Shown here piece by piece: positions 1 through 52,748 of a DNA stretch of 64,000 nucleotides. The first letter of the stretch is position 1; each line of letters begins with the position of its first letter. This stretch comes from Cyanophora paradoxa CCMP329. Its lineage: Eukaryota; Plantae; Glaucophyta. The DNA lies in contig QPMI01000402.1 of assembly GCA_004431415.1 (NCBI GenBank), positions 119,735 through 183,734 on the forward strand, written 5' to 3'. The position numbers and the translations under genes are program-made. The notes under the pieces were generated by a model. That model was given only the letters and a program-made list of their open reading frames with translations. It had not been told where the DNA came from and made no database searches.

Positions 1-3000
1 CGTCCATCCTCGTCTCCGGCCTGGCGTGGACCCTCACGCCCGGCCTCTTCAGCACGCCCTCCTACCCGAACCTCACCGTCGCCTGCACGTGGAACGGCGA
101 GACGCGGACGGCCGTGCTACAGGGCATCCCCGACGTGGCCACGTCAGCGCAAGCGATCAACGTCACGGGCTTCACGCCGAGCACGTCGTCGCACCCCGTG
201 AGCTGCAGCGCGACTCTGTACTACTCGACGGGCGGGCCCGCCACGGGTGCCGCGTCAACCATGTCGACGGCCGGTGCGCGTGCCGCGGGCTGACGCGCTC
301 GTGGAATACGCGCTGACGGCTGCGTGCAGCAATGTACTGCGTGGCGAGCAACGTCACGATGGCGTGCCCTGGCCTGACGGGCCTGGCCATCAACACGACC
401 CTCATCCCATCGTCGACCTCGTGGCACACGACCTCGTACGAGTGCATCCCGCCGGCTTTCAAGACCGTCAGCGTGTCCTGCACGGGGCCCAGGGCGGGCT
501 CGGCGACGTACCAGCAGAACAGCACGGCGGGCGCTGTCGCGTCGAACGAGCCGTCGGCGTTCGTGGGTGTGGCCGTGCCGCCACTGGCAGGGAGCGTGGC
601 GTACCAGTGTCGGTCTACGCTGCACTACGTTGGCACGGAGTACAACGCAACTAAAGCGATTGTGGAGCAGCAATCGCCGACTACCTGCGTGGTTCCCGCA
701 GGTTAGCGCTCACTTGCTTGCACTAGCGTTCAATTTCACAGAAATGCTGACGTGCGATGCCGCGCCCTTCCGCACAGCTCGCGCCCGGTTGGTGGCCGAG
801 GACGCTCTAGCCTTCTCAATCATTCCGATCTCGACAACGGCCGTGTCCACATCTTCCATCACGTGGGCGCTCACAAAGCAGGGCGCCATCGACACGCCCG
901 TCTATGGCAAGCTCGAGGTGACCTGCGCAGGGCTCTCCTCCAACGCGTCAGCCGCTATCCTTTCCATTCCGGCGGCGTCCGCATCTGCTGCGCCCGTCAA
1001 CGTGACCGGTCTCCCCGAGAGCTGGAAGGCCTACCGCATCTACTGCACTGCCGTCCTCGCCTACGGCGAGAACCGGACGGCCTCTGGCATCGCCTCGGCG
1101 CTGTCACTGCCCAACGCCACCTTGAAGGACGCATCCAACGGCCAGGCGCTTCCGACGTACACCGCCACGCCCACGCCCAGCCCCAACGCGAATGCGTCGG
1201 CCCCTTCGACAGCCTCCTCCACCATCAGGATCGGCAACCAAACCTACGAGGTGTCGGCTGACGGGAGCAGCGAGAACGCAATCGTGATCAGCATGCAGGA
1301 GCCCGTCGTTCAGATTCCGCAGAACGTGCGGCGCTCCTTGCTTTGCTCTAATTTGCACATCCGAGCTTTGCCCGCAAATCAGACTGACCCCCGGCCTGGC
1401 AGGCGAGCGACGAACTCGTGAGCATCTCTTTGGAAGGACTTGTGGTGCGATATCGATGCGCTCCGCACGTCTGTCGCTATTGCTGCGCCCAGCTCCACTG
1501 ACTACAACGTATGGCACGTGACGCAGACCGCGCGGAGCGGAGAGAACGAGGAGTCCGATGCCGGCGACGTCGAGGTCTACCTGCTGAGCGGGGAGGGCGC
1601 ACTCTCGGACAGCGAGGCGATTATGCTCGACGCCAGGATGCAGAACAACGAAGTCCAATTCCGTGCGCGAATTCCCGCACGCGAGCTGAGCTGTGAGCAT
1701 TACACCCAAAAATTACCCCAATATAATTTGCCCCTTCAAGCAATATCCGCATGATTCCCAGTAACCCAATCCCCAATCTCAGTAAATCTCAGTAAGCCTC
1801 AGTCACAATCTATTTTATTTAATCGAAGTTATATGCATTACACCCAAAAATTACCCCAATATAATTTGCCCCTTCAAGCAATATCCGCATGATTCCCAGT
1901 AACCCAATCCCCAATCTCAGTAAATCTCAGTAAGCCTCAGTCACAATCTATTTTATTTAATCGAAGTTATATGCATTACACCCAAAAATTACCCCAATAT
2001 AATTTGCCCCTTCAAGCAATATCCGCATGATTCCCAGTAACCCAATCCCCAATCTCAGTAAATCTCAGTAAGCCTCAGTCACAATCTATTTTATTTAATC
2101 GAAGTTATATGCATTACACCCAAAAATTACCCCAATATAATTTGCCCCTTCAAGCAATATCCGCATGATTCCCAGTAACCCAATCCCCAATCTCAGTAAA
2201 TCTCAGTAAGCCTCAGTCACAATCTATTTTATTTAATCGAAGTTATATCTAAAATCTAATCAATCGAAGTTATATGCATTACACCCAACTACCTTTTAGT
2301 TAATCCGCTTCTTAATTGATACCTTTTTCTAACAACTTTGCTGCGATTTGGTTTGATTCCCTCTTTTGCAACTTTTCGATTCACTGTGTTTGTTTTCTTT
2401 ACAGCTTGAATCCTCATTTGCTGTGGAATTTTCATTATCTCATCTCGTTTCACTTTCTGTAACTCTTGTTGCTTAAAACGTCTCTTTAATTCCTCTGCAT
2501 CATCTCCATTATCTTCAAGCACCTTGAATCGATTAGCATCTTTCCCAGCTACTTTGTAAATCTTCTGACTGAACCTGGGGCCTTCCTTTGAGAATGCACC
2601 TCTCTCCTCTAAAACTCTTACAGTATCTCCTGGTTTGATTTTATCGGGTTGATTCTCTTTAACATCCATGTTATGCTTGGTGGTTTTTAGGAAAATAAAC
2701 ATTTGCTTCTGTGGACTTGCAAACACTTGGTTTGGGGAATCATTGTTCAGTGATGAATGAGGCGAGTTATTGTAAGCCTTTAGCACATCTGGGATTAATT
2801 CGACCCACTTCGAAGTATTCCTCGAGACCATGAGTTTGTTCATGTATTGTTTGAAGGTTCGAGTGAATCGATCGATTATCCCAAGTTTATTCCCAGCAGA
2901 AATGTGATCTTCTTTCGCAACATCTGTATACAATTCGACACCATTTTCACTGCACCAAGTTCGATAAACCGCACTGGAAAACTCATTATCCCCTGCCAAT

Positions 3001-6000
3001 CCTACAACCTTACCTGCTTCGCCCTTGAATTTATTAAGTATTCCCGGAATCTCTTCGCTGGTCTTGAAAGCATACACAAATGCCTTTCTACTTAGAATGT
3101 CAATGAAACTAAGCGCTTTAATGTATCCATAATTTGCTGTCTTAAACTTTCTGAAAAACATGACATCAACCTGAAATGAGTATGGCTGGGCAACTATTCT
3201 TAAAAACGTAGTCTTTTTCCTAGGCTTCTTGAAAATTTGATGCAGTTCGGAATTCTTATACTTGTTTCTCAGTTCCGCCTCATCAAATTCCTTCCCTTCA
3301 CTAATGAGCTTCTGTTTGTATTTTTGTATGATAGAATATTCTCCATTACTGGGCTGAACAGTTACACCTACAATGTGACAAGAAACAGTTTCGAGAAATG
3401 TGAGCGATAGCATTGTTCTCCCGATCAACAGTGGCTTCTTCGAAATCCATAATATCAAAGCACCTTCTGCATCGCCCCAATTGCTTCCCATACTGCTTTT
3501 TGAACCAGTCCCAATCAACATACTCTGCCAAGGAGAACTCCCGATTGGCTTGTTTGTCTTGGGATTTGTAGGAATCGATTTTCTGAGCTTGATCCTCCTT
3601 CGTTTTCACCATTGTGGCTGCCTCGGATTTATCAACGAAAATCACAGTATCCGAGAGATTCTGGGTTCGAGTTGCTGCAACATAGAACCACTCAGCAGTA
3701 ACATATGGGGACCCAGTCTCGTGAATTACAACACGAGAATCCCTGATTGTGTCACCCTGAATGATGTGACAGGTGAAAGCATGGGTCAATGCGAAATACT
3801 TGATATCTTCGCTTTTTAGAGTATGCACTTCACCCGAATCAATGTCTTTGAGAGTGAGAATTTCCTTGGCTTTGTATTCGACCACTTCGTAAACAAAGCC
3901 CCGCTGAATGATGCCCTCACTTGTTGTCATTCGCACCTTTGCAATCAGCTCCACACCTGTCTTATATACAGGATCCTCTCCATGAATCATTTTATGCATT
4001 TTGTTGTTCACCTCTGCACACTTGCGGTTTGAATTGCATACTGAGATATCACCCTTCTCCAATGTATCAACTACTTTCAAGCCCAATCGTCTGGCAGCAA
4101 TAGAAACTGGTAGTTCAGTCCTGAATAAGTCCTCCCATAACTGGTCTAATTTCTTCTGATCTGCAGCCAGTTTATGACGCTTTCCAACCTGCAGGTAAAC
4201 CTCGTTCTTGAAAAGTCTATCGAAGATCTTGTTGTAGTAATCTCGTTGATTGACTGTTATGAATTGGATGGGTGGGTTCTGGTAGGGGTCGCCTGTTGCG
4301 ATGTAGAGTTTGTCTGGGAACTGCACAGTCATCACATCGCACAGAGATTCCAATTCCCTAATCTCAAACTGGTAGATCTCATCAATAACAAAGCAATCGT
4401 ACTTAGATAATTCCGAAACCTTCTTCCCAACATTTCCCTTCATTCTCTCATCATCAACATTCAAATTCAAGGCTCGATAAATAGTCATCACCTCAGGAGC
4501 ATCCTGCCCCACTCTGCTTTTAGTTCCATTCGCAAATCCTTGCATCTCTTATTAGTAGGCGCAACGAACAAGCATTTCTTACCATACTTCTTGGCCATTG
4601 CCTTTGCCAAAGTAGTCTTACCAGTTCCCGGTTTCACTCCTTTAATCAGCACATTACCTTGCCCATCCAAAGCATTTACGATTGCTGGGAGGTCATACTC
4701 ATCCTGGAACTTGTGAACCTTGTGAACAATCTTTTCAACATTGATGAAAGGTTTGGAACGAGTTTTGAGTCGATCAAATGTGATCATGTGGCTCTTTGGT
4801 TTTTTGGAAGTCCTCTTACTGTGGGTTATCGAGTTCATGTTTGCTGGCTTCACATCAAACTTTCCAGTGTTCTCGAATAGGTTTCGGTCAAACTGCTCGA
4901 ATGGATATGGTCTATCGATTGTCAGCTCATCGGTCTTGATTGCAAGGACTCCCACTCCCTCAGAGAGCAATTTCTTGCATAGGCGATACATGATGCCTCG
5001 CATGGTGGAGTAAATCACGCACTGCATTGGCAGGAAACCATCAATGAAAGCCCGTTCTTGTTCTTCCTGGTTCACATACCAAATCATGGGCGATTTAATG
5101 TCCTTCTCATTCTTAACTGATGTGTGTGTTGGCTTCTCTTGATCGAAACTTATAAACTTCAGGGTCCCTCCATTCTCTTCAATGAAATTCAGAGCATCAT
5201 TTTTATTGAAAAAGGTGTAGGTGGTTGCTTTTCGCTGGGACTTCTTACCAAATAGACCAATGTGATGGTTGGCAATGTCTTTCTTCTCCTTGGTCGAAAG
5301 CTGACTTGCATACAACTGCTTGAAAGCCTGCAAGGTGACATTCTCGGCAATCCGATAAGGTCTTAGAACTGCCTCAATGCTGATGTCATCCTTAATATCC
5401 TCGTAAAACTCTTTCAAAACCTCACCATACATCAGGTTATACTTTGAATCGACGAGAATCCTCTTGTATTGATTCAAGGTATTCGCCTCACCATAATTTC
5501 TGAATGCTTTGAAGTGTTTGGCTTTCACTTTCACGGAATAGAACGAATTGTCTTCGATGTCCGAGCTGCAAGACACTTTGACTTTTTCGAATCTATCAAA
5601 TGAACTGAAAACTGGAAACACCTTAAGCACTTTCGAAACGATGTGTGTGTATGCTTTGGAAATGTCGAGCTTGTGAGTATCAATGGATCCATAGGCAATG
5701 TTCTCTACCATTGTTCGGACCTCAGAGGCAGATCCAAAGAACCCAGTCAATGCACTCTGTTGCCCTTTAGTAAATGCTGCATATGTTTCTGGATTATATT
5801 TGCTCTTGTAGGGTTTGTTGATAAGCGCCCTATACATCATCTGACTCATCTCATCAAACAACTTGCGATGCGCATCATCTGCAAGGTTCACATCAATATT
5901 TTCCATATCCACCATGTTGCCTGGTGGAAGGATAATTACATCTTTATCCTCTATTGTGTAGTGAATGTAGGTTATTGTTCCCTCATCAGTAATGGAAGTG

Positions 6001-9000
6001 TGAACCTCGTGATTAGCCTTTCGGAAGCTTCCCAACAACTCAAGTAGTGGCTTGTTGTATGTGATCTTAATTTTTCAGAACTACTATCTTTCTCTCTGGC
6101 AATGATCTTGATGATATCCTCCTCGCTGTAAGCAAAGAAGCTGTTATCGTTGAACTGTGTTTTGATCTTGTATTTCATGGCTGCTGAACCCATACTCTTC
6201 TTGGTTTCACGGGCGCCAGTTCCATTGAAAGAACGAACCAGTTTACTGAGATCCTTATTTAATACATAAACGTGGTCGTTTGCAATCTGCACATAAACAC
6301 TTGCGGGAACTAAGTGAGAGTTGGTTCGATTCGGTTTGAAGGAAAGAGTATGAATAACCTTGTCATCCTTTCCAATTGCAATGAACCTGATGCGCCACTT
6401 TTTCAAGAAAGGAAGAAGCTCATCAAAACTCACTCCCCAATCGGAATCAGGCTTAGGTTCATATCCCTTGATCTGAGCAAAGAGCCAGTCTTTGGAGTAG
6501 TTGACCTTCTTATACTTCTTGATGCTGCGGGCATACTCAAACCCTTTGCATAGAACCTGATGTAATGCTTCGATTAAACAATCTTTGATGGTAAGTGAAT
6601 CATCGGGACATATTTGGTCCATCACACACTTAGCCTGACCATTGAGGGTGTATTTCACGAAACGAGAAACGATTTTTGGAGCCTGCCCATCTCGCAGAAC
6701 TCGTTCATTCAAAGGGTATACTGTTTTGTTATCGCTGACAATAATCTCCTCGATTGTCATCACCTCTGGATACTTGATGTCTGATCCATTGGGCGCATCA
6801 TTCGTGAAAACCTTAACGAATTGATAGTCTCGATTGCGAGGGTTGCTTTGCCCAATAGAAATCAGGAAGGAAGCAATCTCGTTCAGAGTCCACAATGCAA
6901 GGAAGTTATTAAAGTCCTCTTGCACCTGTTCAAGCAATCTCACCAGCACTTGCTTGGGGCAGGAAAGCATCAATGCGCGTTTTCCGGATTTTTGTGTTTC
7001 AATGTAAGGTGTGTCTTCGTGGATAACAACATCGTAGTTGTTTGGGAGGTTATTGAAGTCTTCAGGAATTCGGTAAAACCTCACACGAAGCGAGACTGTA
7101 TCGCCATCCTGGGCCTCAATATCCCTTATGATTCTCCTTACCAGCGCTTTGAACTGCTTACTTTGCTGCTTTTCCACATTCTTCTGGGAACGAGCGGAAC
7201 GTTTAGCCTTCTTATTCTGCTTGCGATCAAAGCGCTTCCGCTCCTTTGCTTCGGCTGCTTTCTTGTTCTGCTTCTCAACATTCTTAGCGGCTCTCTCAGC
7301 CCTCTTCTCCTTCTTCTCTTGCTTGCGATACAAACGAGGCTCTACGATACCTCTCAGTGTATCTCTGATATCAATCAACTTTGGAATTCTAATTGCTTTG
7401 AAAGTAAATTCTCTCAAGAAATAGATATCCTGCTCTCGGGTCAATTTGTCTTCTACTTTTGCTTGCATGTAGTAACCAAGAATCTCATCCTGCAAATTCT
7501 TCGAAATCCGATTACTTGGTCGAGGCATTTTCACTTTTATATATACTCTATATTTTATTTCCTTAAGTCATTTTATACTCGCGTCAAATTTTACCGGCAA
7601 AACCAAAAGTCTCCAACAAAATAAATTCAGTCGAGGGCATTTATAAAAATAACAAAGGGTTGGCTCGATCATCGAACTCTAAAAATAACAGAAAGATTTA
7701 TAGTTTTGCTTCCAGCGCAGTTTCCGCGGGTTCTCAGAGCAATCGCGCTGAGAAAAACGATTAACAAGCATTAACATACTTTGATGGACGTCCGCGGTTG
7801 GTACGAGGAACGTCAAATAGATACTTTACATAGAGAATGGTGTTATTTACATATTGAGCCTTGCATGAAGTCATTATGTGAGCTTGTCTGAATTCTTCAT
7901 CATTGTTGTAGAGTTCGTTCCATTTTGCATTGCGTTTCTCATTAATCCTAGCAAGCGCTAACATACCCTTTTCTGTTTTACGGTAGCGGTAAGTTGCTTT
8001 CTTTTGGGCTTCTGTGATCGTCATTCTTGTCCTTTCTACTCTCTTAATATATGTTAAGAAATCTTTAAGTAGTTTTTATGTCGTGTATATATTCTTTGTG
8101 AGAACCCAATCAATTTTTGGTCCCGATTGCAGAGCATCCAATTCTGAAAGAAGATGCTGGAAAAATGATAAAGCCACCGATACCCAGAAGGTTCACTTGT
8201 CGGCTGCAAGTTTCTACCACTGAACCCGATAGAACAGGTGATTAAAGTGATTTACCTATGGATATTTCACTTCGCTCTACAACGCCTCCATAAAAATGAA
8301 GAAGTTTTGAGCCTACGGGATAGGATTGGTTACGTAGCGCTAACAATATTCAAGATTTTTTAAATTCGGAAATGATCCTTAACGGCGATAACCGGGTCTA
8401 ATACCAAGCTTGGCAAACCCTGAGACCATTGGGGCAGCATTTGGAATCGAGTTGACTGGATCAGCCTGCGAAGTGGCAACCCGAAGGATCGATTTATTCA
8501 GGACCGGCAAATCCGTTTTGTTGGAGTCTTGATACTCAATGGTCTTCGCAATCAATTCAGTTGGTGAATCTTTTACGGCTTGCACAGGTTCAGGGATGAC
8601 TTCATGGGTTACCTCTGGTTTCTTCTCCACCTTCTCCTTTGTGATTGGCTGTTCCTTGATCTTGTTTTCGTTTTTGGTCTCTGCTGCAATGCCATCAACA
8701 AGACTCTTAGCATACTGGTATGTCACAGATTTCAGTCCACCAGTGGTTGATCGAATAAAGTAGCGGTTGCGATGGTCTTTCTCGGAATAGGTTGAGTAGA
8801 GTCGCTCACCACCATCAAGCAGTTTCAGCAGTGTCGATGATGAGGCAACCTTGTCCTTCGTGGATGATTTGAACTGCCCTTTCTTGATTCCTCGTTTGGC
8901 TCCAGGCATGCGGTTCAGTGGGACTTGGTCAACCAGGGCATTATCATCATTTGAGTTTGAAGTAAGCGCGATTGTGTGAGCATTCATGGTTTGGTGAACA

Positions 9001-12000
9001 TTTTTATCGAGATCACCAGTTCCATATGCAGCGGTTCCTTTTGATTTCTTAAACTGTTTCCGTTCTGGTTCTGCTTGCTCAACTGGTTTGGCTAAGAAAT
9101 TCTTTGGCTGGGTCTTTCGAGTTGCCATTTGTAATATCGAGACAAATTTATTCTACAGTATTTCCTATGACCGTGAGAACGGCAAGTAGAGTCCCTCCAA
9201 CTCTTTAATGACATTCTTCAATGCTTTCTTGGTCAGATCTTTATCATCTTCCGTAATGAGTTCGAGAGTCATCGACCAGTCAGTGGTAATATCCGTTTCA
9301 GCACCATTCCAGTATGTGAGACGAACTTTTAGCGTTTCCACTTCCACTAAACCATTTTGCTCATGCAGGATCATGGAATTATTCGATGAATCGTATTTTA
9401 GCAGACTGCCTACCGTTTGGTCAATCTCGATTTTTGCAAGGGCTTTATCATCGCTGGTGTTCTTGCTTACATAGTTGCCTTTGAGTGGGTCAACATGAAG
9501 AAGGATGTAAGAATTGAACAGAAGATCAAGCGGTATAACACTGTCAATGTAGTAATTATAAGTATAAGCTCCAACTGTTACAGGTGAATCGAGCAGGGCA
9601 GAAGCGTATCCATTTTCAGAACTGTCAGGTCTGCGATCTGGGAAACCAAGGAAGTTCGCTAAGATCCGACTTCCAAAGGTGAGGGTAAATGTTGCATCGC
9701 ACATGAACCGTAGAAACATGGTAACAGGATCATATGTAACGTAGAAATGGCGAGTATATGTAGTTCCCGCTGCTCCGTACACTTGTGAAGCTAGTTTGGC
9801 ATTTAGAAGATTCACCAAACTATCCGAAGTATATGTCCCTTTCGAAATAGTGTTACTCTTGGTCTTAATTACATCCCCAGCATCATAGGTTCCTGTAATC
9901 AAACTTCCATTCTCGCTAAGATTGTAAATGTTATTGAACATCTCAAAGTTAGTCACTCTGCAGGCTCTCACATTTTGGATTGCATGGGGAATTTTGTAAG
10001 TAAAGTTCGTTGGGGTTCCATCATCTCGGTCCCTGGAATCAATATTAAGGTAATGACGCGTCATTCTGTTTAATAAAGCATTTTAAAAATTTCTTTTGGT
10101 ATTTTAAACATAAGAGATGGCACTCACTGGAACTACCCTTAAGGAACTCCTCATTACTCCCGGTTCCGATCAAATTTATCTTTCCCCTGGTCTCCAAATC
10201 GGAACCAACCCCAAGTACAAACCATTCCTCGAGCAAGTTCGTCCCCGAGGCAATACTTTTGGCTTTAAGAATACCGCTTACTTCGATCTTCCTCGCAAAC
10301 AACTCCTTGCTGGTGTTTCGCTCTATTTCAAGATTGCCACTGGTGGTGGTGTAGCCTGCACCCTCCCCAATGGTGGTTCTTCCTTTATTAATGAGGTCCG
10401 CTTTGTTCATGGTGGTTTCAAGTATATCATCCCTGGTGACTGGATTACTGTTAACGCTCTGATTGATAATGATCATGCTACCATGAGCAGCATGTATGCT
10501 TCTCTTGGTTACTTCAAAGAACTTGATCGTGAAAGCACAGATGAGGCTATGGAATACATTGTTAAAATCCCCGCTGCTTTCTGGGATGATGCTTACTTCC
10601 CACTATGCACACTGGCGGATATGCCAACAATTGAGGTTGATTTCCGTGATGCTGGGATAGTCAAAGTTCCTGCTGGTGGATCTGTTACCTTTGCGGATTG
10701 CTCTCTGATCTGCCAATTCGTAAACATCGCTTCGGCTGAGGCTGAGACACTCCTAAAGATGGCGAACGAACAAGGTGGCATTCGCATTCCGATCACAGAG
10801 GTCATCCACAAGAAGACCCGAGCGCTTAAAACCGCTGATGCTGGTGAATCGGTCGAGGTTACACTTGCTAATGTTTCCGGTCTGGTTCATTCGATTCTCA
10901 TGACTGTTCGAGAGGTGAACAAACTCAACACCTACACTCATTCTGATTTCTGTGGTCATGTTTCGGATGTTAAAATCGATCAGTTCCAGATCTTCCACAA
11001 CAATCGCTCCCTTGATATCTCTAACAAACCCATTTCCGGTTTCCTCTCCGCTGTCAATCACATTCCCTCTCATTACAAGGGTGTTACTGTGGGCAATACC
11101 ACCTACGGATTCGAGTCTGGAAATGTTTATGGAATTGTTCTTTCCAAGTCCGGAAAAGATTCGCTCCACAATTCGGTTATGGGTTACCAGGATTTCTTCA
11201 ACAGCAGTTCGAGCTACATGGATCTCACTGTTTCGGGATGCACTGATGCAGCTCCTGTTCAGGTTGACATCTATGCCCTACGACACAATGTTATGGTCCT
11301 CAATGGCTACAACATCTCTACCCTGAAAGTCTCGAACTTTTAAAGTTCTTTTCTTTCGTTAGAGTAGGAAGCGCAAAATTAGTAGGTAAGGGGTTTATTT
11401 TGTTTTTTATCTTATTACTGTAATGGATAACACAGGAATGGATATTGATTTGAATGACATCCAGAGTTTGAGCCTGCAAGAACAGTTAAATTAAGCACGC
11501 GTTTTTTATTATGTGGGCGCAGCAATTCTGGTAAGACAACTTACTGCAAATATCTACTTTATGAACTGAGGGATAAGATCGATCAGATTGTAGTCTTTAG
11601 TTCTACTGCGTTTACTGGTCAATTCAGAGATATAACGCATCCTGATAATATCTATGAGGAATGGGACGATAATGTAGTAGTGAAACTCATTAGCATGCAA
11701 AAGAAACGAATTGAGAATAATGAGAAGCGTAATAATTTGGTTATAATCTTAGACGATATGATAGGTTCTTCTTTGGATATGCATAATTCAGCTGTCCTTT
11801 CTAAATTGATTACGACAGCCCGTCATTATTCGATTACAGTAATTATTAATACTCAACGTTTATGCTCTATTTCTACTACCATTCGTCGAAATGTTGAGTT
11901 CGTAGTATTTTTCAATATTCTTGGGAACGAAAAAGAGTTCAATTGCGCCTTTGATGAGTATAATGGGGGTCTCGATAAGAAGACTTACAAGGAACTTCAT

Positions 12001-24253: not shown

Positions 24254-25218
24254 ATGTCGTCCGCCCTCGCCCGCCGCTCCGTCGCCGTCGTCCGCTCCGC
24301 CGGTGCCCGCCTGGCGGCCGCTCCGATCCGCTCGAAGATGAGCCCGGCGGTCTCGCCCAAGTCGTCGGCCCCGGCCACCCCCGAGGAGGTGCGCGGCAGC
24401 CGATGAGCCTTTCGATTGCGCGCGCGCGTACGCGCTCCGGCCGCTGACCTGGCTTCTGCGCGCGCCTTCAGGCCGTCAAGGCGCTCCGCGAGGGCAACGC
24501 CCGCTTCATCTCGGGCAAGATTGAGCACCCGAACCGCTGCGAGGAGCGCATTGCCCAGGTCGCTGGCGGCCAGGCCCCGTTCGCTGCCTTCCTCTCCTGC
24601 GGTGCCTTCTAGCCTCTGCGCGCGCAGTCCCGCGACGCTCCGCTGACGGCTCTTCGCGCGCAGCCGACTCTCGCGTCCCGGTCGAGCTTATCTTCGACCA
24701 GGGCTTCGGCGACGTCTTCGTGACCCGCGTCGGTGCGTTGCGCAGGTTCGATTGCGGATTTGATCTTAGGGCTGACCCCGTGCGCGCAGCCGGCAACGTC
24801 GCCACCTCTGAGATCACCGGCTCGCTTGAGTTCGGCACCGCCGTCCTCGGCGCGAAGGTCCTGTACGTCCTCGGCCACACTTCGTGCGGCGCCGTCAAGG
24901 CCACCGCCGCCGCCGGCCCCGTCCCCGGCCAGATCTCCTCCCTCTACGCCCACATCCGCGTGCGTCCCATTTCAAATTCGAAAGCAGATTTGATCCGCGC
25001 GCGTCTGTCTGACCCGGCCGCGCTCTCGCCCGCAGCCGGCGTGCCGCGCGACCCACAACGACGTGGAGAAGGCGACCATCGAGAACGTGCGCTTCCAGGC
25101 CCAGCAGCTGGCCGAGACCTCGCCGGTCATCTCCGGCCTCGTGAAGGAGGGCAAGCTCAAGGTCATGGGCGGCGTCTACGACCTCGCCACCGGCAAGGTC
25201 AACGAGGTCGAGATCTAA
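24254..25218 (+). CDS. Beta-carbonic anhydrase with mitochondrial-type presequence (5 exons)
   Basis: Exons 24254-24388, 24472-24601, 24664-24732, 24790-24959 and 25036-25218. Motifs LREGNARF, CADSRVPVELIFDQG, RVAGN, SLEFG, GHTSCGAV, GGVYDLATG; Arg/Ser/Ala-rich presequence. Confidence 0.95.
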
Positions 25219-26113
25219 ATCTCTTCCTCCTCGTCTTCTCCAACTTGTAGACTTGTGTTTTCTTGTACCATCACCACTTAGACGATAGCTTATTTCACGG
25301 TCTATTCCTCGGTATGTAGGCGGCCGGCCGTTGTGCTAGTGCAGCCACGGCCTCGCGCGCCCCCTTGGAGGGCGGCAACGCCCCAAGTACTTGCTCCGAT
25401 GCTTCGAATTCCGTTCTGCGGCTTCCTCAATTTTGCGACGATCGAGGGTAGTGCTAGCAGTTTGTCCAGAGTGTCTGATTCGGATGAATGCAAAACGTTC
25501 GGACATGCATATGGCTTCAAGGGGCGAGATGGTTGTTGCTCTAGCTTCTGTACATGTGGTGGGAACTCCTACATGACATACATGTACATACTATGGCGCC
25601 TACATAGCTACATGTACATGTGGTGGGAATTCCTACATAGCTAACATGTACATACTATGGGGACAACTGGGAATCGCCGCGGCGCAGGCTGCGCAGCCAC
25701 CGTCGACAGCAGCTGCACTTCGACTCGATCATGAGCTTACTCTCCAGAAGCTAGCGCTACCAGTGCTCAATCATGCACAAGCCGGCCGCGGCGCGCCCCC
25801 GCAGCGGCCGGCGCCTGCCCTCAAGAGCCCCCCCCAGCGCAGATGCGCGCCGCAGATTCGAATAAGTTTGAATATTCACACGCGTACGACTACTAGTTCC
25901 CCGGGCAATCGCTGGTTCAAGAGGGCGGCCGGCGACCGGGCGGCCCCGCCCGGCCGCAGGGCAGCGTCGGGGCGGGGCCGGCGCGCCGGGGCCCGGGCGG
26001 GGCCGCCGAACCGGGGCCCGGGCGGGGCCGGCGGGCGCGCCCGGGGCGGGGCGGGCCGGCCCCCATCCGAGGCTTCCTGGGCGGCTCCCGGCCCGCCCGC
26101 CCGGCGGTCATGA

Positions 26114-29100
26114 TCAGCCCTCGCGCCTCGCCTCCACATCGATGACGGGTCCCTGGCCGGCGTCCGGCCCCCCCCTGCCCGAAGCTAAGAAAATGCTAAA
26201 AGGGCCAATGCTAAGAAAAGAGATGGGGGTACCTCGGGGGGTACGAGGCGCCGACCTCGGCGCCGGCGCCGGGGCGCCCGCCGTACGCGTCCGCGACGGA
26301 ACGGCGTACCCGGGGGTCCGTCAGGGGGTCCAGACGGGGCGCCAGGATCCGCGTGTAGCGATCGAAGTAGAGTGACTGATGAAGGTAAAGATTAGCAAGC
26401 TTAGCAAGCTTCGATTAGAAGTTCAAACAAGGGCGAGCCTGTTTGAAGAGCAGCGCAAAGGAGCGCGGGAACTTCACGCCGTGCCTGTCCCCCACCCGCA
26501 CCAAATCCAGCACCTGGAGGGGGTACGCGGTCACGGGGACGCCGGCCTCGGGGGGGGGTACGGGAAGCAATCTATCGAATAAGCGAGAGGGGTACCAGGC
26601 GGTTGATCTTCGTGTCGTCCACGACGCCTCCGGGGCGGCCTACTCCCAGGCTGCGCAGGGACGGCAGCGTGGGCGGCTCGCCGGGGGTACAGGGCGGGGG
26701 GGGGTACAGCGCACTCCTCGGGGTCCAGGGTACGGATGGACGCGAAGAGATCCTGCGGGGCCGCGGGGCTCTCTGGTCAACGGGGGGCGCGGGCGGGCGG
26801 GCAGGGGTTGAGTAGGGGGATGGGGGCGGGGGCCAAGCGGGTGGCGCGGTGCGGCTCCCCTCTTTCTCCCTGCGATCTAAGCTAGAGAATACGAACGCGC
26901 TAATTATAAAGCCTGCTCTCCGGGCGGGCAGGCGGACGGGCGGGAGGGCGAGAGCTACGTGGGGCGCGGGCGGGAGCCCAGGGGTGGCGCGCGCGGCGCG
27001 GCGCGCAAGCTAGAGAAAGGCAATTACAAGCTAGATCTAAGCTGTCAGTCCCGCCGGCGGGGTTGAAAGGCGGCGGGGTTGAAAGGCGGCGGGGATGCTA
27101 GGCGGCGGGGGCTAGGCCTCTTCATCCATCCAGGCCCTGGCCAAGCTTTAGCCCGCTAAGCCCAATCCGGGCTCGACCGATCCAGGTCCCCGCCATGCTT
27201 GCCAAGCCTAAGCCCGCCCGCCCGCCCGCCTGCCCTCCTCAGGGCCTGCTCCCTGCCCCGGGCAAGCTTTAGAATGCTAAGCCTACGCCCGCCCTCCTGC
27301 TCCCCTCCTCTCGTACCTTGAGGTCGGCGGCGAAGGCGGGTACGTCGACCTCGCGGTCCGCCGCCCCGATCGCCACCAGGCTCTCCGCCACGCCTGAGGG
27401 AGGGGCGTCGGAGGTGGGCGGGGAGGGAGGGAGGGAGGGACGGCGGAGCGAGGGGCGGGGGCGGTGGGGCGGGAGGGGCGCGGAATGTGCGAGCTCCCTG
27501 GCTACAGCTAGACCGGGCCCGGCGAGGCGAGGCGAGCTCCGGCTCCGCCGGCGGGGCGGGAGGGGAGGAGGGGAAGCTACAGCCATAGAGCTCTCGGCTG
27601 GATGGGCGGGCCGGGGCGGGCCCCCAAGCTCGCAGCAGGCGGCCCTCGAGCTCTCGGCTAAAAGGGGCGGGCCGGGGCGGGCGGGGCGGAGCGGGGCGGG
27701 GCGGGCGGGCGCACGGGTCCAGTCCTCGACGGGGATGGCAAGGACCAGCGCGTCGATCGCCGCCCACACCTAGGGAGGGGGGGTACTGGAGATCAGGACG
27801 CGACGGATCGGATAGATAAGATTTGAAGTCGAGGTTAGGCCCTAGGTCGACTGCTGGGGGGAAGAACCTCGGGGGGGATACGCCCGACGATTCCGAAATC
27901 GATAAAACTGCGGGCGGGAAGGGGGGTACCGCGTATGCGAGGGGGTACGGGGTAGGGAAGGCGCGGGGGAGGGGAACGGGGCACGAACCCGACGCGGCCG
28001 TCCTCGAGGACCAGGAGGTTCCCCGCGTGCACTGGGTACACGTTTACAAGGGAGGGTAAGGGTAGGGATAGTTAGGGGGCATACCGTCCGCGTGGAAGAA
28101 ATCGTGGTACGCCACGCTCGCGAACCAGACGTTCATGGCCTGCGGCGGGGGGTACAGATGAGCGGAGGGGCGGGGGTACAGCAGGGTGGCGCGAAGACGG
28201 GCGTACCCGAATGAGCGTGCCCTCCGGATCGCTCGTGTACTTCCTGAGGGGGGTGCACGAATCCATTCAATCGGGTACTGAGGGCGCGGGAGCGGGGTAC
28301 AGCCGAGCCGCACCGGATCGACTCGAGGTCCGTGAGGGGTACGCCGCGCAGCCGTTCCATCGTGAGGACCTTCCTCCGGGTCGCCTCCTGCCGGCGAACG
28401 AAGTGAGGAAAGGGAAAGGGGACCCGGCGGGACTCGGACTCGCCATGTAGACTTTGGGGGCTACCGCGAAGTTGAAGCCCATGCGGTCCAGGAACCCGCG
28501 GAACTCCGTAACGTTTTTGGCCTCCTGAGAGGCGGCGTGAGGGGGTACGGCTTCCCGAATCGGACGAGGGGGGTACCGCACCGCAAGGAAGTCGGTCTCC
28601 TCGGCGACCGCCTGTTGGATGTCGGATATGATCTGTCGGGGTACGTAGGTTAGATAGATCGAGGTGTACACGACGGGGGGGTACAGCGCGCCTCGGTGAG
28701 GGATACGCGCTTCAGCTCCGGGTTTGCAAGCTCCAGCAGCGAGCCGGCGACCTGGAGAAGATGTCAGGGGTACGTGTACGGTGCGGCAGCTTCGGGGTCG
28801 GGGTACGGTACCAGAAGGAAGTTGAGGTCAGTCCGGAGTGTGTCCTCGGCCCCCGGCCGCTGGACCTTCGCGGCGGGGGGTACGTGAGGCCCGTCCATTG
28901 GGAGGCCGTACCCCCTCCCTCTTCACCCTCACTCACCTTGATCACGACCTCCTCCCCCGACCGCAGCCGCGCCGCGTGAACCTGTACCCCTTTCAGTGAG
29001 CGAGGGAGGCGAGGGAGAAGATGGGGGGGGGGGGGAAAGGGGGAAGAAGAAGAGGTACGCGCCTGGGCGATGCTGGCGGAGGCGATGGGCTTGGGATCGA

Positions 29101-30143
29101 CGTAGCTGAAGAACTGCCTGTAGCTGCCGGGGACAAAAGGGGGTAAGTTACGCTCCGAGCTTGCGGGGTACGGGGACGCCGCGCGCACCCGGAGGGGAAC
29201 GACTCGTTGAGGATGCGCTGCAGGGGTACGATTAGCAGGGACCGAGGGGTACGGGGCGGCGCAGGCCGGGGGGTACCTCGATCTCCTTGAAGGGTACGGG
29301 CTCCGTCGCGTCGAGGCAGTACTGGAATTCCGTCACGTACCTGCGGGTGGGGGGTACGCGCTCATGCCGGGCGCATTAATATCCCACGCCAGGGGTACGC
29401 GCTCACTCCTCGGGGAAGATGGTGGGGGCGGACGCGATGAACTGCCCCAGCTTGATGTAAGTGCTCCCGAGCCGCTCGAAAGTCTTCCGGAGGAGCGCGG
29501 GCGTCGACGCGCGCCCGCCGCTCTGAACGAACTCGAGTCCGGTCTCCGCAATGGCCTGAGCGGAGGCGAGGCGCGCGCGCGTGCGTCGGCCCCGAGCGGC
29601 GCTGCGCGGGCGGGCGGGCGGGCGGGCGGGCGGCTGCGGACCTGAGTCGTCTGCGCGACGCGCGTCGCTGCCTTGAAGATGGTCTCGGCGTCCTTAAGCG
29701 GGTTTCCGCTGCGGCGAAGACCTCAGCGGCGCTGCAGGGGAAGGTAATCGCCGGCGGCGGCGCACGTAAGCCGCAGCGCGGCGGGGATGTCCGCCAGCGG
29801 CCATGCGGGCTGCTTCCCTCGGCTGCTCGACGGCTTTGCACCAGTGGACGACCCTGAGGCGCTGGGGCCGGCCCGCCGTGGCTCAAAGGCGTGCGCGCGT
29901 GCCGGCTCTGGCGTAGATGCTCCGGCGGCCCGACGCGTCCGAGGCCGCTCCTCCGCTTGAATCCGAGACAATTTCTTGTGTACCTCCGCGTGCTGCGCTC
30001 GCCGGCTTCGGCGCAGAGCGGGGCGGCTCGCGTCGGCACCGGCGCACCTTCGCCGGCAAGCCAAGACCCAGGAGAGCGGCGCGCGCCTGCTGTAGCTTCG
30101 AAACCGCGCCGGCGGGCGCCGGAACGACGTTGAAGGCGTGCAT
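26114..30143 (-). CDS. ABC1/UbiB atypical kinase (ABC1K9-like), plastid-type presequence, many exons
   Basis: [102 protein letters not shown]; N-terminus MHAFNVVP. Confidence 0.9.
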
Positions 30144-34517: not shown

Positions 34518-35147
34518 CTAGGGCAAAATGCGCACGCCGAGGTGCTGAGCGAGAGCGCGCTGGCGCATGACCTGAGGTATGTTCGGGCCGAAATGCTGCG
34601 CCACGTGTTCGTCGCCGAGGTAGTAAACGAGCCAGCTATTCAGTTGCTGAGGCGTGAGCGCCAGAAGAACTTGCATGCTCGTAATCGGAGGTTGCGGCGG
34701 CTGGCCTCCCTGCTGGTTGAGGACGGCACGGTAGGGCGTCAGGACTCCTTCGGCGCAGGTCGCGTTCCACATCCTGTTAAACTGAGCCCGGCCGCGGCTC
34801 TCGTTAGCGAATGTCCCGAAGCCGCGGCCCGACACTGCCGCGGATACGGCGCACACGATGCGCCGGCGCATACGTACATCTTGCTGCATCTGTTGCAGCA
34901 TCAGCTGCATATCCTCCCAGCGCTGCTGCTCTTCCTGCTGCTGCAGATGAATCTGCTGAAGTTGTTGAGGAACCTGTTAGACACGTTAGCGCCAACGCTC
35001 CACCCAAGCAACAGCGTGTATGCTTACATCCAAGAGCCCGGCTAGTCCAGCGAGTTGGGGGACTTCGTTTGCAAGAACCTGGGAAGCCTGAGCAATCTGA
35101 TTAACGGCAGCTGCGATATTCACAGCAGCGTTTGCGGGATCTGCCAT
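34518..35147 (-). CDS. 159-aa Gln-rich coiled-coil protein with Mug135/DUF1773-like C-terminal domain (3 exons)
   Basis: Exons 35147-35028, 34973-34878 and 34781-34518 join in frame. Introns GTAAGC..GCTAAC..AG and GTACGT..GCTAAC..AG. C-terminus RMWNA...PPQPPITSMQVLLALTPQQLNSWLVYYL...RQRALAQHLGV. Family assignment is from pattern memory. Confidence 0.65.
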
Positions 35148-40598: not shown

Positions 40599-43500
40599 AT
40601 GATCCAGACCATCAAAAAATTGTTGGGAGTACCCGCGGCCGAGTGCATCGTGCTGGACAGCGATGAAGAGCAGGAATTCCAGCCCCAGCCGCCCCATGGC
40701 CAGCTGCAGCAGAACGCGAACGTGCATGCGCAGCTGCAGGCGAACGCTTCCACTAGATCTGACTCCGTGGCCGCGTTCGCCGCCGGCGCTCCCCGCGGCC
40801 CGGATCCCGAGGGCGGGCCGGACCAGCAGTTGAGCGACGAGCAGCAAGATGCAGATCTGCAATCCGTCAGCCCCGAGCCCGGCCCCCGCAGTAGCCCGAA
40901 TGTTAACCCTTGACCTGACCACGACCATGACCGCAGGCGAGCGAGCCGCAGCGGTCCGAGGCGACCGGCGCTGGCGATTTCGAGGATGAGCACTCGCTTG
41001 CGCCTCCGGAGGAGCGTCCGCAGACTCCCGAGCCGGAGTCGGCGAGCGTCGGGGAGCACTTCGTGCACACCCTGGGCCAGAACCACCGCGACAGCAAGAT
41101 GGGCGGTGCGAGCGTACCTTACATCGCTTCCTGAGCGCAATCCGCTGACTGCAGTCCCCGCCCCGCAGCGCTGGCGGAGTTCTTCGACAACAGCCGCGAT
41201 GCCTCGGCGAACCTCATCAAGATCGAGCGCGCCACCGTGCCCCGGGCCCGCGCCGAGGCCGAAGAAGGCGAGCAAGAGTCCGCGGGTCAGTCCTGCCACC
41301 CGCCCGCGCTCCCTGTCCCACGCCTGAGCATTCGCCTCGCCGCGCGCTGCAGACGAGGAGGCCATTGCGATCACGGACGACGGCAGCGGCATGACGGAGG
41401 CGGAGCTGAGGACCTGCTTCAACATGGGATCGTCGATCAAGTCGGACGTGCACGTCGGCGGGGTGCGTTCCGGCTGATGCGCAGATTTGATCCCGCCTCG
41501 CCGCCGCTCACGGCCGCCCGCTCTGCCGCGCAGTACGGCATCGGCTTCAAGAGCGGCGTGCTGCGCGTGGCGCGCCGCGTCGCCGTGTTCACAGTGGCGC
41601 GGGACGGGCGCCGCTCGGTGGGGCTCTTCCCGTGGGCCGCGCCCGCGGCGGGCCGCGAGGGCTCGGCCGCGGACGGCGGAAGCCTCAAGTTCATCGTCGG
41701 TGCGACTCGGACCTGCTCCGCGCCGCGCCCCCGCGCGCCGTCCCGCCCGCGCCCGACGTGACCGCCCGCCGCGCGCGCAGCGCCCTGGGACGACGCGGCG
41801 TCGCCGAAGCGGGCGCTGTTCCTGCGCGAGTCGGGCTTCGGGACGGCGGCGGAGGTGGAGGCGCAGTTCGAGGCGGTGGGCGCGTGCGGCGTGGGCCCGA
41901 GCGCCAGCGGGACGCGCGTCGTGCTGTGCGGCCTCAAGAACGAGGAGGACCAGCGGCTCGTCTTCTCCGCGGACGGCGCCGACCTCCAGGTGCTGGACGA
42001 GAAGGGCCGCCCCTTTCGCCTCGCCAGCCGCGTCAAGGCCGTGCTCCCCAACAAACAGATCGAGCTGGTGCGCGGCGCCGGCGCCAGTCGCCGTCAGCTC
42101 CGTTCGTGTCCGAACCTGACCCGAGGGGGCGCAGGACTACAGCGTGCGGGCCTACGCGGCTCTGCTCTTCGACGGCGGCGCGGCGCCGGCCTTCGAGATC
42201 AACGACCGCCCGGTGGACCGCATCGCCCCGGAGGCCTTTCTCGGCCTCGAGGACCGCAGCCCCGTGCTGCCGGTGACCGTCCTCCAGGCCAACGCGCGCC
42301 TCACGCTCGGCTTCAGCCGATACGTCTTCGACGACCGCCTCCCGGGCGGCCTTCTCTACTAGTGCGCCGCCCCGCTAGACCAGAAATCTCTCTCTACGAT
42401 CTGACGCGGCGGCGCTCGCAGCAAGGACCGCCTGATCGAGTCGTTCGTGCAAATCGGCGAGCAGCACTTCGCGAGCACCGTTCAGCAGGGCCTCGCGGCC
42501 GTGCTCCGCGTCGACGCCGCCAACAGCTCCAAAAACGACGTCATCAACACCAAGCAGGTGCCGTCCTGCGTTCGATTCGAACCGTTCCCGGCTGTTATCT
42601 GACGGCGCGCCGCCAGGCCTTCGACTGGAAATTGCGCGTCAAGATCAGCGACGTTCTGGCGGAGCAGGGGCGAGAGTTCTGGGCGGAGCTCGCCACGAAG
42701 GGCGGACCGAGCTTCCTGCGCGACGGCCGCGCGCAGCAGGCGGCGCCCCGGCCCCCCGCGGACCCCAACGGGGAGTTCAACTGGGTGCAGTGCAGCGGTT
42801 GGTGCGCTGCTCTGCTCGGCTCGGCGCCTGTACCCCCTCGAAGGCTGCTCTGACCCCGCCGCCGCCCAGCTCGAAGTGGCGCAGGCTGCACCCGGGCCAC
42901 ACGCCGCCCGGCAAGGACGAGGCCTGGTGCGCGCTCGCCGTACCCCCCCCCGCCCCCCCCCCCCCCCCTTCTTACCTGTACCCTCCCCGCAGGTACTGCG
43001 CGATGGCTCCGGACCGTATGATCACCTGCGAGGAGCCGGAGGACCCTTGGGACAAGGGTGACGTCGCCATTGCCAGCAACGTCGGATCGGCCCAGGTCCG
43101 GATAGACGGAAGCTCTCCAATGATTACGCTGAGTGTACCCCAGAGACTGGCGCGGATTACCGCGATGGAGGCAAGCATCGCCGCCAAGCAGAAGCAGGCG
43201 AGCGGCGTACCCCTCTCCCTGACCGCAGCCGGCGCCGCTTCCGCTGACGCGAAAACAGAAACACATTTTGCACGTCTGGGGCGGCCTCGGAGGCTCTGTT
43301 GAGCCTCCTCGCCCCGCGGACAAGCGCGACGGGAATGGCAAGCGGAGGGGTGCGTACCCCCCGTCGTCTTCTTCCCCCCGCCCGGGCCTTTTTGTCGCGA
43401 GCGCCGACCGGGCTCCGGGTCGCAGGGCCCGAGCCGCTCGAGCAGCCGGCCCCGAAGCAGGCGCGGACCCACGCCTCCGGATCCGGCGCCGCCCAGCGGC

Positions 43501-49407: not shown

Positions 49408-52400
49408 CTAGCGGTACAGGGGGGCTACGCGGTCCCGAACGTGCGCGAGGACCGCGGCCCACCGCTCCGCGGGCAGCGACTCGAGGAGTGACGCCCACTC
49501 TTTCCTCAGCGCCTCCCGGGCGCCCTTCTCGTCCGCCGGATTCGAAGCGGCGGAGCCGGCGCCGGCGCGCCCGCCGGCGCCGTTTCCGATGTCGCTGAAA
49601 GGCCGCCGGGATGGCGTCGTCGGCTGGGACGGCTGGGACCCCTCGTCCGTCGCCGGCGTCCTGAAAGTCACCTGCGCGGATTCGAACCGGGGACCAAGGG
49701 GGGTGGGAGGGTCTGGATTTCGGACCTCGGCGCTGCGGTCGCTGCGGAGGCCGTCGCGGAGGGCCTGTACCCGGGCGGCGTACGCGGTGGCCGGGTCAAG
49801 GTGGTTCAGGCGAACGCTCGTCTTGGGCGTCGTGACCTCCTGCCCCGCGAACTTGACGGCGTACGCCGTCGGCGCCGGGCCCGAGGAGGGGGCGCGCCAG
49901 GAGAGGGTACAGGTTCGGCTGGTGAGGGACTCGACTCGGAGCGACTCGGGCGGGCGGGGGGCCTCCAGCGAAGAGGCGGAGGAGGAGGTGGTAGAGGAAG
50001 AAGAAGAGGTGGGGGAGGAGACGGAGACCGAGAGCGGCTCAGAGCGGGGCCCCTCCCCCAGGCCTGCGGATCGAATCAGGGGAATCCCGGGGGTACAAGG
50101 GGCTGAGAAGGGGGTACGCCGCACCGTTGTAGGCGGAGACGGAGAAGGCGAAGCGGCCGGGGGGTACGCCCCGCAGGACGCAGCGGGGACTAGGGCCCTC
50201 CGTTCGGGTCGCGAGGACTTCGGCGTCGCCCGCCGCGGCGCCCGCCGGCCGCCGGTAAATGGCGTACCCCGCCACGGGGCCGTTCTTGGAGGGGGGTACG
50301 GGGTTCCAGGTGAGCTCGAGGTCCGAAGGGGACCCTCCCCACGCCCCCGCGGCGCGCAACTCCGACGGGGCAGCCGACGGCGTCTCTGCGACGGGTTCGG
50401 ATTCAGTGAACGTCCCGTCTGGCGTACCCCGGGTAGTGAGCCGCGTACCCCCCTTGGTCGTGATCTCCTTGTACTCCGACCACTCGCCCTGCCCGGAGGG
50501 GTTCACCGCCGCAACCCGGAACCTGGCCGGGGGGGTACAGCATGAGACGATGGGTTACGGTTAGGTGGGGGGGGGGGGGGTGGAAGATAGGCGGGTACCT
50601 GTGGAAGGTCGCCGGCGTCGTCGGCACGTCCGCCAGCGGCTCGTCCGTCCGCATGACCTGGTAGCCCCCGCCGCGTGAGTCGAGTACCCCGAGATCCGAA
50701 TGAGGGGGATAGGGGGGTACGCGCACCTCCCCGAGGCGCTCCTCGCTGACGACGTACTCCACGTTCTCGCCCTCGACCTGGTACCCGTCCATTTCCATGC
50801 TTAGCATGTACTTTAAGGCTTAGGTAGAGGAGTATATTTAATGACCTTGCTCCAGCGGATCTTGACGACGAGCTTGAAGGCCTGCACCTTGAGCTTCTCG
50901 ACCCGCCCCGGCACCGGCGCTGCGCGAGGGCGCCCGGCTCAGCCGAGGCTCAGCTGAGTTCGAGGTAGAACGTACCCCCCGAGTAGAAGGGCTCCGTGGA
51001 GCACTCCACGAGGCGGATGGGCGAGACGCGGCCCGCCAGCGGCGTCGCGAAGGAGACCTGCGCGGGGGGTACGGTGAGGAACGTGGGTACAGAAGGATTC
51101 TGCCGGGTACGGGACGCGCCTCGAAGACGTAGGGGGTACCGTGCTCGAGGCCGTCGACGGTGATGGGGATACAGTGCCCGTGGCAGTGGACTGGCCCGCC
51201 GCGCGGCGCCCTCGCCCGCTCCTGGGGCGCGACCCGACGGTAGTAAGACATGCTAACCTGGAGATCGTGTCAGACTTTTCAAGAAAAGCACAGCTGTTGA
51301 TTTTCGTTCGCTTCTATAAATAGCGTACCTCGAGGGGCTTGGAGCGCCAGGATTCGCTCGCGTGCGAGATTTCGAGCGTGACGGAGCCCGAGGCGCGGGA
51401 CGCGACCCGCACCTGAGCTCGCGGCGGTTAGTAGCCGCCGCCGTTACTAACGACTGGCGGTTTCTCGTGACTCACCAGGGGGGTCGGAAGCGGGTCCGAA
51501 TCCGTGGCCTTGGTGAGGTACGGGTTGGGCAGCGCGCAGCGCCCGCTCGCCTCGACGATCGCACGAGAGACGGACGCCACGCGCTGTGGGGGAGGGGGGG
51601 TACGGCTCAATCGGGGGCGCGGAGGGTACGACGGCGAGCGGCCGGGGGCACGTGTGGCCCACCCACCTTGAAGCGCGCGGAGATGGTGTAGGACTTGCCA
51701 GCCAGGAGGCCGTCGAGCGCCACCTGCGTACCCCGCATTAGTTAGAAACTCAAAAAAAAGTTGGCGTAGAGTTGCGAGGGCCGGGCGGCGGGCGCCTTCC
51801 AGCGTTATAAGAGGTTATAAGATAAGGCGTCGTAGAGATGTTGTAAGAAGTTATAAGAAAAGGCGGCGTGGAGTTGCGAAGGCCGGGCGGGGTACGCGCC
51901 TTCCAGCGAGTGAAAGAGTTCGCGATGTCAACGGTGAAGTCCTTCGAGACGGCCGGGAGGCCCGCCGCCTCCGCCTGCATCCGATCAAATCAGATCATTG
52001 ACCGGATCAAATTCACAGCGAGTGGGTCTGGGCCCGGGGCCGGACGGTCCCACCGACCCAACCCACCTGGATCTCGACGAGGAGCTCGCAATGGGATCGG
52101 GGTACCGCCTTGACGTACGCCGCGAGGCGCGCGCCGCTCACGATGACCTCCACTGCGCGCGGCGCCGGTCGGCCGGGAGCAACGAGCCAACGAGAGGGCG
52201 AGTCGAGGCAGCGGCCCGTGCGCACCGCGGGCCTCGCTCGGCGCGCCGACCGTAGTGAGGCTCTCCGGCGAGGGGAGAGTGCCCGTGGACGCCCCCCCGC
52301 TGCTGGGCGCCGCCCCCGAGTCGGCGGGCCCCGGGCGCGGCGCGGGCCGCGAGCCGCTCGATCCGGGCATGAAGCCCGCCGAGGGGCAGCGAATGATGTA

Positions 52401-52661
52401 GGCGCGGCGTGCATCCGCGGTCTGCAGCGCCTCGTAGGCCGCCTTCACGACCTTGAAGCAGTCGGCGGCGTGCGGGTGGTCGCCCGTCTTGTCGGGATGC
52501 GTCTGAAGCGAGAGCGCCTTGAAGCGCGAGCGGACCGACTCGTCCGTGGCCGTCACGCGGTCCACGCCCAGCACGGCGAAGTAGTCGACGCGGTCGGGCG
52601 GCAGGCCGATGTAGTACTTCAGCCGCGAGAGCTCCGTTCGGGAGGAATCGAAGGTGCCCAT
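49408..52661 (-). CDS. J-domain (DnaJ) protein with multiple fibronectin type III repeats
   Basis: DYFAVLGV...FKALSLQTHPDK...AAYEAL J-domain. FN3 signatures DGLEHGTPYVF, VAAVNPSGQGEWS, LELTWNPV...GYAIYR, PPESLRVESLTSRTCTLSWRAP...LDPATAYAARVQA. Confidence 0.85.
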
Positions 52662-52748
52662 TGCGGCACGTTGCTGAGCGCTCTACGGCACGGCTGCCAA
52701 GGCTGGAACCGAGGGCCGCGCAATCCGGCCGTTGTTGACTTGGAGAGG

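Follow-up and report, generated by a model that had tools for sequence, protein, structure and literature searches.

A divergent Tlr1-like replication gene, most likely intact, in an endogenous polinton-like element of Cyanophora paradoxa

The closest described relatives of the gene considered here are the Tlr1-like pPolB-S1H proteins, fusions of a family B DNA polymerase with protein priming (pPolB) and a superfamily 1 (SF1) helicase. The available text of Krupovic 2016 (PMC5499653) describes proteins of 1,000-1,400 amino acids with a pPolB palm, no exonuclease, an altered motif C and an SF1 helicase, and with a C-terminal HNH in polinton-like viruses (PLVs). Krupovic 2024 (PMC11161782) adds, in the part available, a vOTU protease with Cys and His and a variable α/β middle domain at the place of the terminal protein (TP), predicts the palm to be active, and names both HNH and GIY-YIG ends. 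This description is repeated in the accessible text of PMC12721341 and PMC13215967, which report many such elements in eukaryote genomes. The gene in question lies in a 64,000-nucleotide stretch (the window) of contig QPMI01000402.1 from C. paradoxa CCMP329; positions are given in window numbering, and residues are amino acids of a frame of ~1,394 codons read from the minus strand (Table 1).

As judged by sequence, the gene is a new, divergent member (30% identity) of the Tlr1-like pPolB-S1H family, the named members being compared by description. In their available descriptions, the pPolB-S1H proteins of PLV-Bnat, PLV-SAF5 and TvV-S1 share with the window protein a length of 1,000-1,400 amino acids, a variable N terminus, an α/β middle domain, the vOTU Cys/His pair, a TPR1/TPR2 palm lacking the first Asp of motif C, the absence of Exo motifs, an SF1B helicase and a C-terminal HNH. 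Every part of this architecture, the C-terminal HNH and the missing motif C Asp among them, has already been published (PMC11161782 and PMC5499653). The window protein is ~30% identical to its nearest relatives, and it differs from the published accounts in the exonuclease, which is said to be lacking there, whereas a fold remnant is predicted here. The literature searched holds, in its accessible text, no statement of an exonuclease remnant or a PacI-type site in pPolB-S1H; figures and supplements may show either.

Other systems resemble parts of this arrangement. Tetrahymena Tlr1 likewise combines pPolB-S1H with an rve integrase, major and minor capsid proteins (candidates in the window element), a packaging ATPase and inverted repeats, with no stand-alone capsid protease recognized, but Tlr1 ends in GIY-YIG, whereas the window protein ends in HNH and its element measures 12.3 kb. 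Transpovirons share pPolB-S1H and linear DNA with terminal inverted repeats (TIRs) but have neither a capsid module nor a C-terminal nuclease, whereas in the window element an A32 ATPase is accompanied by candidate capsid genes. In mavirus the helicase is a separate SF3 protein, in contrast to the fused SF1 helicase seen here. The helicase-pPolB of OmPLV from Oxyrrhis marina is also an SF1 helicase fused to pPolB and is fragmented in assemblies, yet it has the opposite order (helicase first) and a full exonuclease (PMC12721341) and is an independent fusion. A canonical Polinton/Maverick pPolB was considered and rejected; such a protein has a full proofreading exonuclease, a DTD motif C and no fused helicase, a combination that the window protein does not have.

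We propose, with a probability of roughly 0.8, that this is an intact gene of an integrated polinton-like virus and that its Tlr1-like pPolB-S1H product likely uses protein priming to copy the linear genome from the ends, with no proofreading and a helicase of its own. We favor this reading because of the single reading frame, the model folds, the conservation, the helicase class, the genomic context (TIRs, target duplication, integrase and A32 ATPase) and the same published domain order. The first-pass annotation had placed a replication protein of three overlapping open reading frames (ORFs) here, and its coordinates hold, the minus-strand Met lying at 7528 and the stop at 3346-3348; the motif order that it listed is borne out along the frame, from the Lys-rich N terminus to the terminal CRCN. 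Its assignments of an OTU fold around the Cys/His pair, an SF1 helicase and an HNH-like end also agree with the models, profiles and conservation described below.

Relatives were gathered by a phmmer search with the middle ORF against 1.84 billion representatives, which returned 211 sequences at E ≤ 0.001, of which 67 reach E ≤ 1e-10; none is under 1e-30, and the best identity is 30%. At least 1,100 amino acids are present in 107 of the 150 relatives listed. The alignment used throughout comprises 101 relatives of 1,100-1,500 amino acids plus the three window pieces as separate fragments, 49 of the 150 falling outside that length range; the set is biased toward relatives of this query. Six residues are invariant (101/101 each): the OTU Cys and His, the motif A Asp, the second Asp of motif C, and the Walker A Gly and Lys. 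Word-based homolog searches of proteins, viral contigs and metagenome contigs found nothing, because the relatives are merely ~30% identical, as phmmer shows. Phage searches gave no match beyond Walker A noise (E ≥ 0.4), an exact look-up found none of seven window proteins, and Pfam and PHROGs scans of the window ORFs returned no PolB, OTU or HNH family. In Atlas scores, matches of the middle ORF fell below 0.9, and the OTU part reached 0.93 and 0.92 to eukaryote-associated clusters, values that serve as leads only.

The N terminus is strongly basic, with 32-36% Lys plus Arg across residues 51-150. Such N termini are common in the relatives, whose median Lys plus Arg fraction over the first 120 residues is 0.225, compared with 0.31 in the window protein. 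Residues 1-270 have a sequence match in none of the 150 listed relatives (E < 0.001). A structure model of residues 140-486 (76 sequences, predicted local distance difference test (pLDDT) 76) contains an α/β domain in the TP position, and we infer a TP identity for it from this position alone. Structure searches with this domain (Foldseek and VIA-align) returned no TP structure, the best rows being unrelated at Z ≤ 3.7, a result that is no evidence of absence. The next region of the model bears out a predicted OTU protease fold around the Cys/His pair, one of two points on which the first-pass annotation had let its reading stand or fall. All 30 Foldseek rows listed are OTU-type or related viral proteases (E 0.15-1.3, none significant alone), and the top VIA-align rows are OTU domains, the best being yeast Otu2 (Z 6.9, root mean square deviation 3.5, 113 residues aligned).

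The middle region, the other point on which the first-pass annotation had staked its reading, models as a phi29-like palm and supports a predicted phi29-type protein-primed PolB. The polymerase model (66 sequences, pLDDT 84.6, predicted template modeling score 0.83) has phi29 polymerase as its sole significant Foldseek match (nine of nine rows at E ≤ 0.001, E 5e-8 to 2e-6). Structure alignment with phi29 polymerase gives Z 15.4-15.7 over 332-361 residues; the best RNA-primed PolB, polymerase alpha, reaches Z 9.1 over 160 residues, and other PolBs align over at most 247. The insertions at the TPR positions were read off the secondary structure of the model.

The fate of the exonuclease is less simple than its absence. 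Residue 1 of the polymerase model pairs with phi29 residue 57 and with archaeal PolB residue 205, and alignments from model residue 1 contain ~60-70 more residues than those from residue 71. By the domain limits of these polymerases, the phi29 and archaeal span aligned at the model start would fall in the latter half of the exonuclease domain. The distance from the OTU His to motif A is ~204 residues in the window protein and a median of 192 in the relatives. Between these points there is no conserved Asp, no column having Asp in more than 36 of the 101 relatives. Together, the aligned-residue counts and range ends suggest that the exonuclease is a dead fold remnant before the palm, devoid of conserved acidic residues, rather than a clean loss. 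The first-pass description of the polymerase as exonuclease-less therefore stands for the missing Exo I-III motifs and conserved Asp but not for the fold, which is predicted to remain in part. With a functional exonuclease absent, the polymerase is predicted to lack proofreading.

The helicase is assigned from the profile of the relatives, whose matches to Pif1, Dda and RecD (E 1e-14 to 2e-11) point to the 5'-3' SF1B group. It is followed by a Zn-binding HNH-like module that is kept in 92 of the 101 relatives and absent from nine. At the usual place of the catalytic His, Arg is found in 89/101 and His in none; seven residues further on stands His (88/101, and the window protein) or Tyr (5/101). 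The metal-binding Asp/Asn and the Asn are conserved, and the last Zn site is HxxC in the window protein and CxxC in 89/101 relatives. Pfam HNH matches were weak and confined to two of the 32 relatives scanned (E 0.036 and 0.04; best five families per protein). The Tyr of PacI presumably sits at the same spacing as the loop His of this module. A primase tail was ruled out, as the protein ends three residues past the HNH Asn.

Whether the gene is truly intact depends on the two frame breaks. Joined, the three ORFs give the ~1,394 codons, each transition being a -1 shift inside a mononucleotide run. The presence of two such shifts could mean that the breaks are genuine, the copy having decayed into a pseudogene or relying on programmed -1 frameshifting. 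The element is apparently multi-copy, and contigs lose rare variants, so that the contigs compared, including those with an open frame, may derive from other copies; in none of the listed contigs is the gene joined to its present host flank. Against this, among 24 sequencing runs listed (19 with half or more of the words of the stretch), the contigs of the four that were compared all carry one extra base relative to the window at both breaks, and also at mononucleotide runs near 3320 in the integrase and near 11460 in the ATPase. One of these four runs may be the window's own source sample, which leaves three others. A single 4,612-nt contig covering 2259-6867 in three runs differs from the window by just one substitution and three gaps, and no premature stop lies within the used portions of any of the three frames. 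Among the 150 best of the 211 relatives, the first piece is matched in 61, the second in 150 and the third in 137, with all three matched within one protein in 59. A single gene is favored because of the extra base in all four runs and because relatives carry all three pieces in one protein; the single polypeptide that had been claimed for these ORFs is thereby upheld. On this sequence comparison, the three ORFs are one intact gene, split most likely by assembly errors, and genuine breaks appear very improbable. Artificial frameshifts can occur in assembled endogenous viruses, according to the available text of PMC10120064. Three separate genes were rejected, given the single frame in the run contigs and the one-protein relatives, as was a programmed frameshift, given the extra base in all four runs. 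No RNA run was listed with the gene, nor is it covered by the RNA-like contigs that bear the same species label, which is no evidence either way; a 259-nt contig at depth 2, from a run labeled as another organism, was set aside.

An intact gene could still encode a palm that is a catalytically dead scaffold, the protein then being a helicase and origin binder that recruits a host or giant-virus polymerase, as the accessible text of PMC5499653 read Tlr1-like helicases in 2016. The first Asp of motif C is missing in 100 of the 101 relatives (Lys 58, Asn 22, Arg 10, His 6, Asp 1), the exonuclease residues are lost, and the model shows no ordered thumb beyond residue 414. Yet at only ~30% identity, all 101 relatives keep the Asp of motif A and the second Asp of motif C, the motif B Lys, Asn and Gly are kept in 98, 93 and 100 of them, respectively, and active PolBs without the same motif C Asp are cited in the available text of PMC11161782; a dead palm thus seems unlikely. 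The KTDE that the first-pass annotation noted in place of DTDS is correct as to the replaced Asp, but KTD is the family norm, and only the Glu is peculiar to the window copy (1/101). That Glu is among the points that weigh against our proposal, together with the 2016 reading of such palms as inactive (PMC5499653, accessible part) and the fact that the polymerase, protease and nuclease activities of pPolB-S1H proteins are predicted ones, no assay being seen in the available literature text. The TP position has neither a sequence nor a structural match; each OTU match is weak by itself (E ≥ 0.15; Z ≤ 6.9, where the tool sets its threshold at 8), although the top rows are unanimous; and the match of the relatives' profile to PacI (E 1.7) is not significant alone and was not seen again when a second alignment or single sequences were used. 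The role of the C-terminal module is the most open point, with replication or excision set close to even against homing or mere DNA binding. The module may have no role in replication, being either a homing endonuclease of the selfish kind or a Zn module that binds DNA but is inactive, an alternative that touches only the nuclease step and that we place somewhat short of even odds. It would fit the loss of the usual His, the nine relatives without the module, and the GIY-YIG at the same place in Tlr1, both types being called homing endonucleases in the text available to us (PMC11161782 and PMC5499653). It fits less well with a module retained in 92 of 101 relatives with a nearby His or Tyr and conserved metal-binding residues, or with the ends of 99 of the 101, which lie no more than 24 residues from the last Asn column and leave no room for an intein C-extein. 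Nucleases of the PacI group, moreover, also lack that His and use a loop Tyr instead (PMC5714182 and PMC4081073, available text).

The HNH-like module resembles PacI-type nucleases and is probably an active nuclease with the loop His as base. The PacI-type His-Me finger nucleases (group 20 in the accessible text of PMC5714182) are likewise Zn-binding HNH folds without the usual catalytic His, and an HNH inserted in nematode and oomycete pPolB2 is reported to keep the residues of PacI except the Tyr (10.1101/2023.08.22.554363). In contrast to these, the window module is C-terminal to a helicase and has His at the candidate base position, and its PacI match is weak, as noted above.

In the mechanism that we propose for the intact pPolB-S1H protein, we infer all enzyme steps. 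The N-terminal part would bind the TIR and provide a hydroxyl as primer, and the vOTU would release the primer domain, probably by a cut at the junction of TP and vOTU, where cleavage has been argued for pGKL1 (PMC11161782). The palm would then extend using the single motif C Asp, with the exonuclease remnant as a structural wall only. The SF1B helicase would run 5' to 3' on the displaced strand, in the polymerase's direction, and provide an unwinding activity for which phi29 polymerase needs no partner. The HNH-like module, probably a PacI-type nuclease with the loop His as base, would act on ends or branched intermediates, and the adjacent integrase would insert progeny, leaving 6-bp duplications. 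A more speculative extension, which we consider rather doubtful, is that the module, present in nine of ten relatives, is no transient homing endonuclease but a PacI-type nuclease that has been domesticated, its His base relocated, to release the integrated genome or to resolve replication intermediates, and that, with the exonuclease wall and the fused 5'-3' helicase, it makes a one-gene, self-processing, error-prone replisome.

Table 1. Features of the window and of the predicted replication protein.
Feature	Position	Strand	Basis or remark
Whole endogenous polinton-like element, 12,280 bp	1684-13963		GC 0.40 vs 0.65 outside; ends AGCTG...CAGCT
Left TIR, ~605 nt, 138-nt tandem units	1684-2288	+	6-bp target duplication CACGCG at 1678-1683
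rve-type integrase, ~352 aa	2289-3346	-	match to foamy virus integrase at E 3.6e-5; near 3320 lies a third frame break
pPolB-S1H (Tlr1-like) replication gene	3346-7528	-	~1,394 codons; two frame breaks in assembly near 6070 and 4506
First, second and third ORF	5972-7528, 4488-6074, 3346-4548	-
Basic variable N-terminal region, aa 1-140	7109-7528	-	composition
α/β domain at TP position, aa 144-269	6722-7099	-	structure model
Predicted vOTU protease domain, aa 284-430, Cys317 and His419	6239-6679	-	conservation and model
Cys317; His419	6580-6578; 6274-6272	-
Putative shrunken exonuclease-like remnant, spans first frame break	5805-6175	-	structure alignment and conservation
Predicted protein-primed PolB core: palm and fingers, insertions at TPR1/TPR2 positions, motifs A, B, KTD	4818-5804	-	model
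Motif A; motif B; KTDE	5669-5649; 5285-5250; 4937-4926	-
SF1B helicase (Pif1/Dda/RecD-like), spans second frame break	3620-4690	-	profile matches
Walker A; Walker B; motif VI	4640-4611; 4386-4375; 3684-3667	-
Zn-binding module, HNH-like (beta-beta-alpha-metal), with D-R in place of D-H	3349-3590	-	conserved motif pattern
CxxC; DRENN; terminal CRCN	3471-3460; 3426-3412; 3372-3361	-
Candidate minor capsid protein, 305 aa	9165-10082	-	size and position; no database match
Candidate major capsid protein, ~407 aa	10114-11343	+	size and place beside ATPase
A32-like packaging ATPase	11458-12189	+	Pfam Pox_A32 E 2.9e-14
RING-finger protein, likely ubiquitin ligase	12186-12686	-	Pfam zf-C3HC4_2 E 5.2e-6
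Right TIR, ~605 nt	13359-13963	-	second target-duplication copy at 13964-13969
Beta carbonic anhydrase (host)	24525-25250	+
ABC1 kinase piece (host)	28715-29332	-
Mug135-like domain (host)	34521-34976	-
Fibronectin type III (host)	50042-50554	-
DnaJ piece (host)	51993-52682	-

The element around the gene has the marks of a polinton-like virus, namely TIRs, an integrase, an A32 ATPase and an offset in GC content, and contigs in all four DNA runs show the empty-site joint 1677 to 13964. Each TIR holds four exact 138-nt tandem units (1697-2248 and 13399-13950), which are candidate binding sites for the replicase or integrase. At TAATG (3344-3348), the stop of the replicase overlaps the ATG of the integrase, which suggests coupled translation; helicase genes lie immediately upstream of an rve integrase in cryptophyte PLVs as well (PMC12220804, available text). 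In the alignment, the integrase has an apparent Asp at the place of the last DDE-region Glu of the foamy virus integrase. The ~407-residue ORF has no match in Pfam, PHROGs, the PDB or viral contigs. The RING-finger gene is present in the same element as the OTU domain. The half with the capsid and ATPase genes (6970-12300) is covered by many variant contigs at higher summed depth in all four DNA runs, depth not being copy number, and the integrase-replicase half (2259-6867) by one near-identical contig. This pattern hints that related elements may share the capsid module but bear other replication modules, a type of sharing reported generally in the accessible part of 10.64898/2026.10.13.758929.

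RNA-like contigs in three of the four runs join 1662 to 14050 with GT..AG ends, indicating an intron of ~101 nt without the element. The element sits in this short host intron (1663-14049); the contigs come from a diverged strain, in which the insertion may be absent, and do not demonstrate splicing across 12.4 kb. The host is an intron-bearing, GC-rich eukaryote, with six Pfam matches among the 136 host ORFs scanned, none of them specific to a lineage. One host region that includes a stretch of GHKL ATPase occurs twice, in diverged form, at 41135-41758 (+; Pfam HATPase_c_3 E 1.5e-5) and at ~63100-64000 (-), and these copies we take to be MORC-like.

Overall, the finding is ordinary as such; papers of 2016 and 2024 already describe the architecture, and there are at least 211 clusters of relatives. 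To this known family, it makes two small additions, the predicted exonuclease remnant and the PacI-like active site, both of which sharpen the choice of residues for mutation. Its value is as material: the copy is intact, the compact element around it has clean ends and a known empty site, and 19 listed runs contain most of that element, which together would make the predicted activities testable. Should the reading of a PacI-type replisome prove true, this 12.3-kb element with its intact gene would be a minimal test system.

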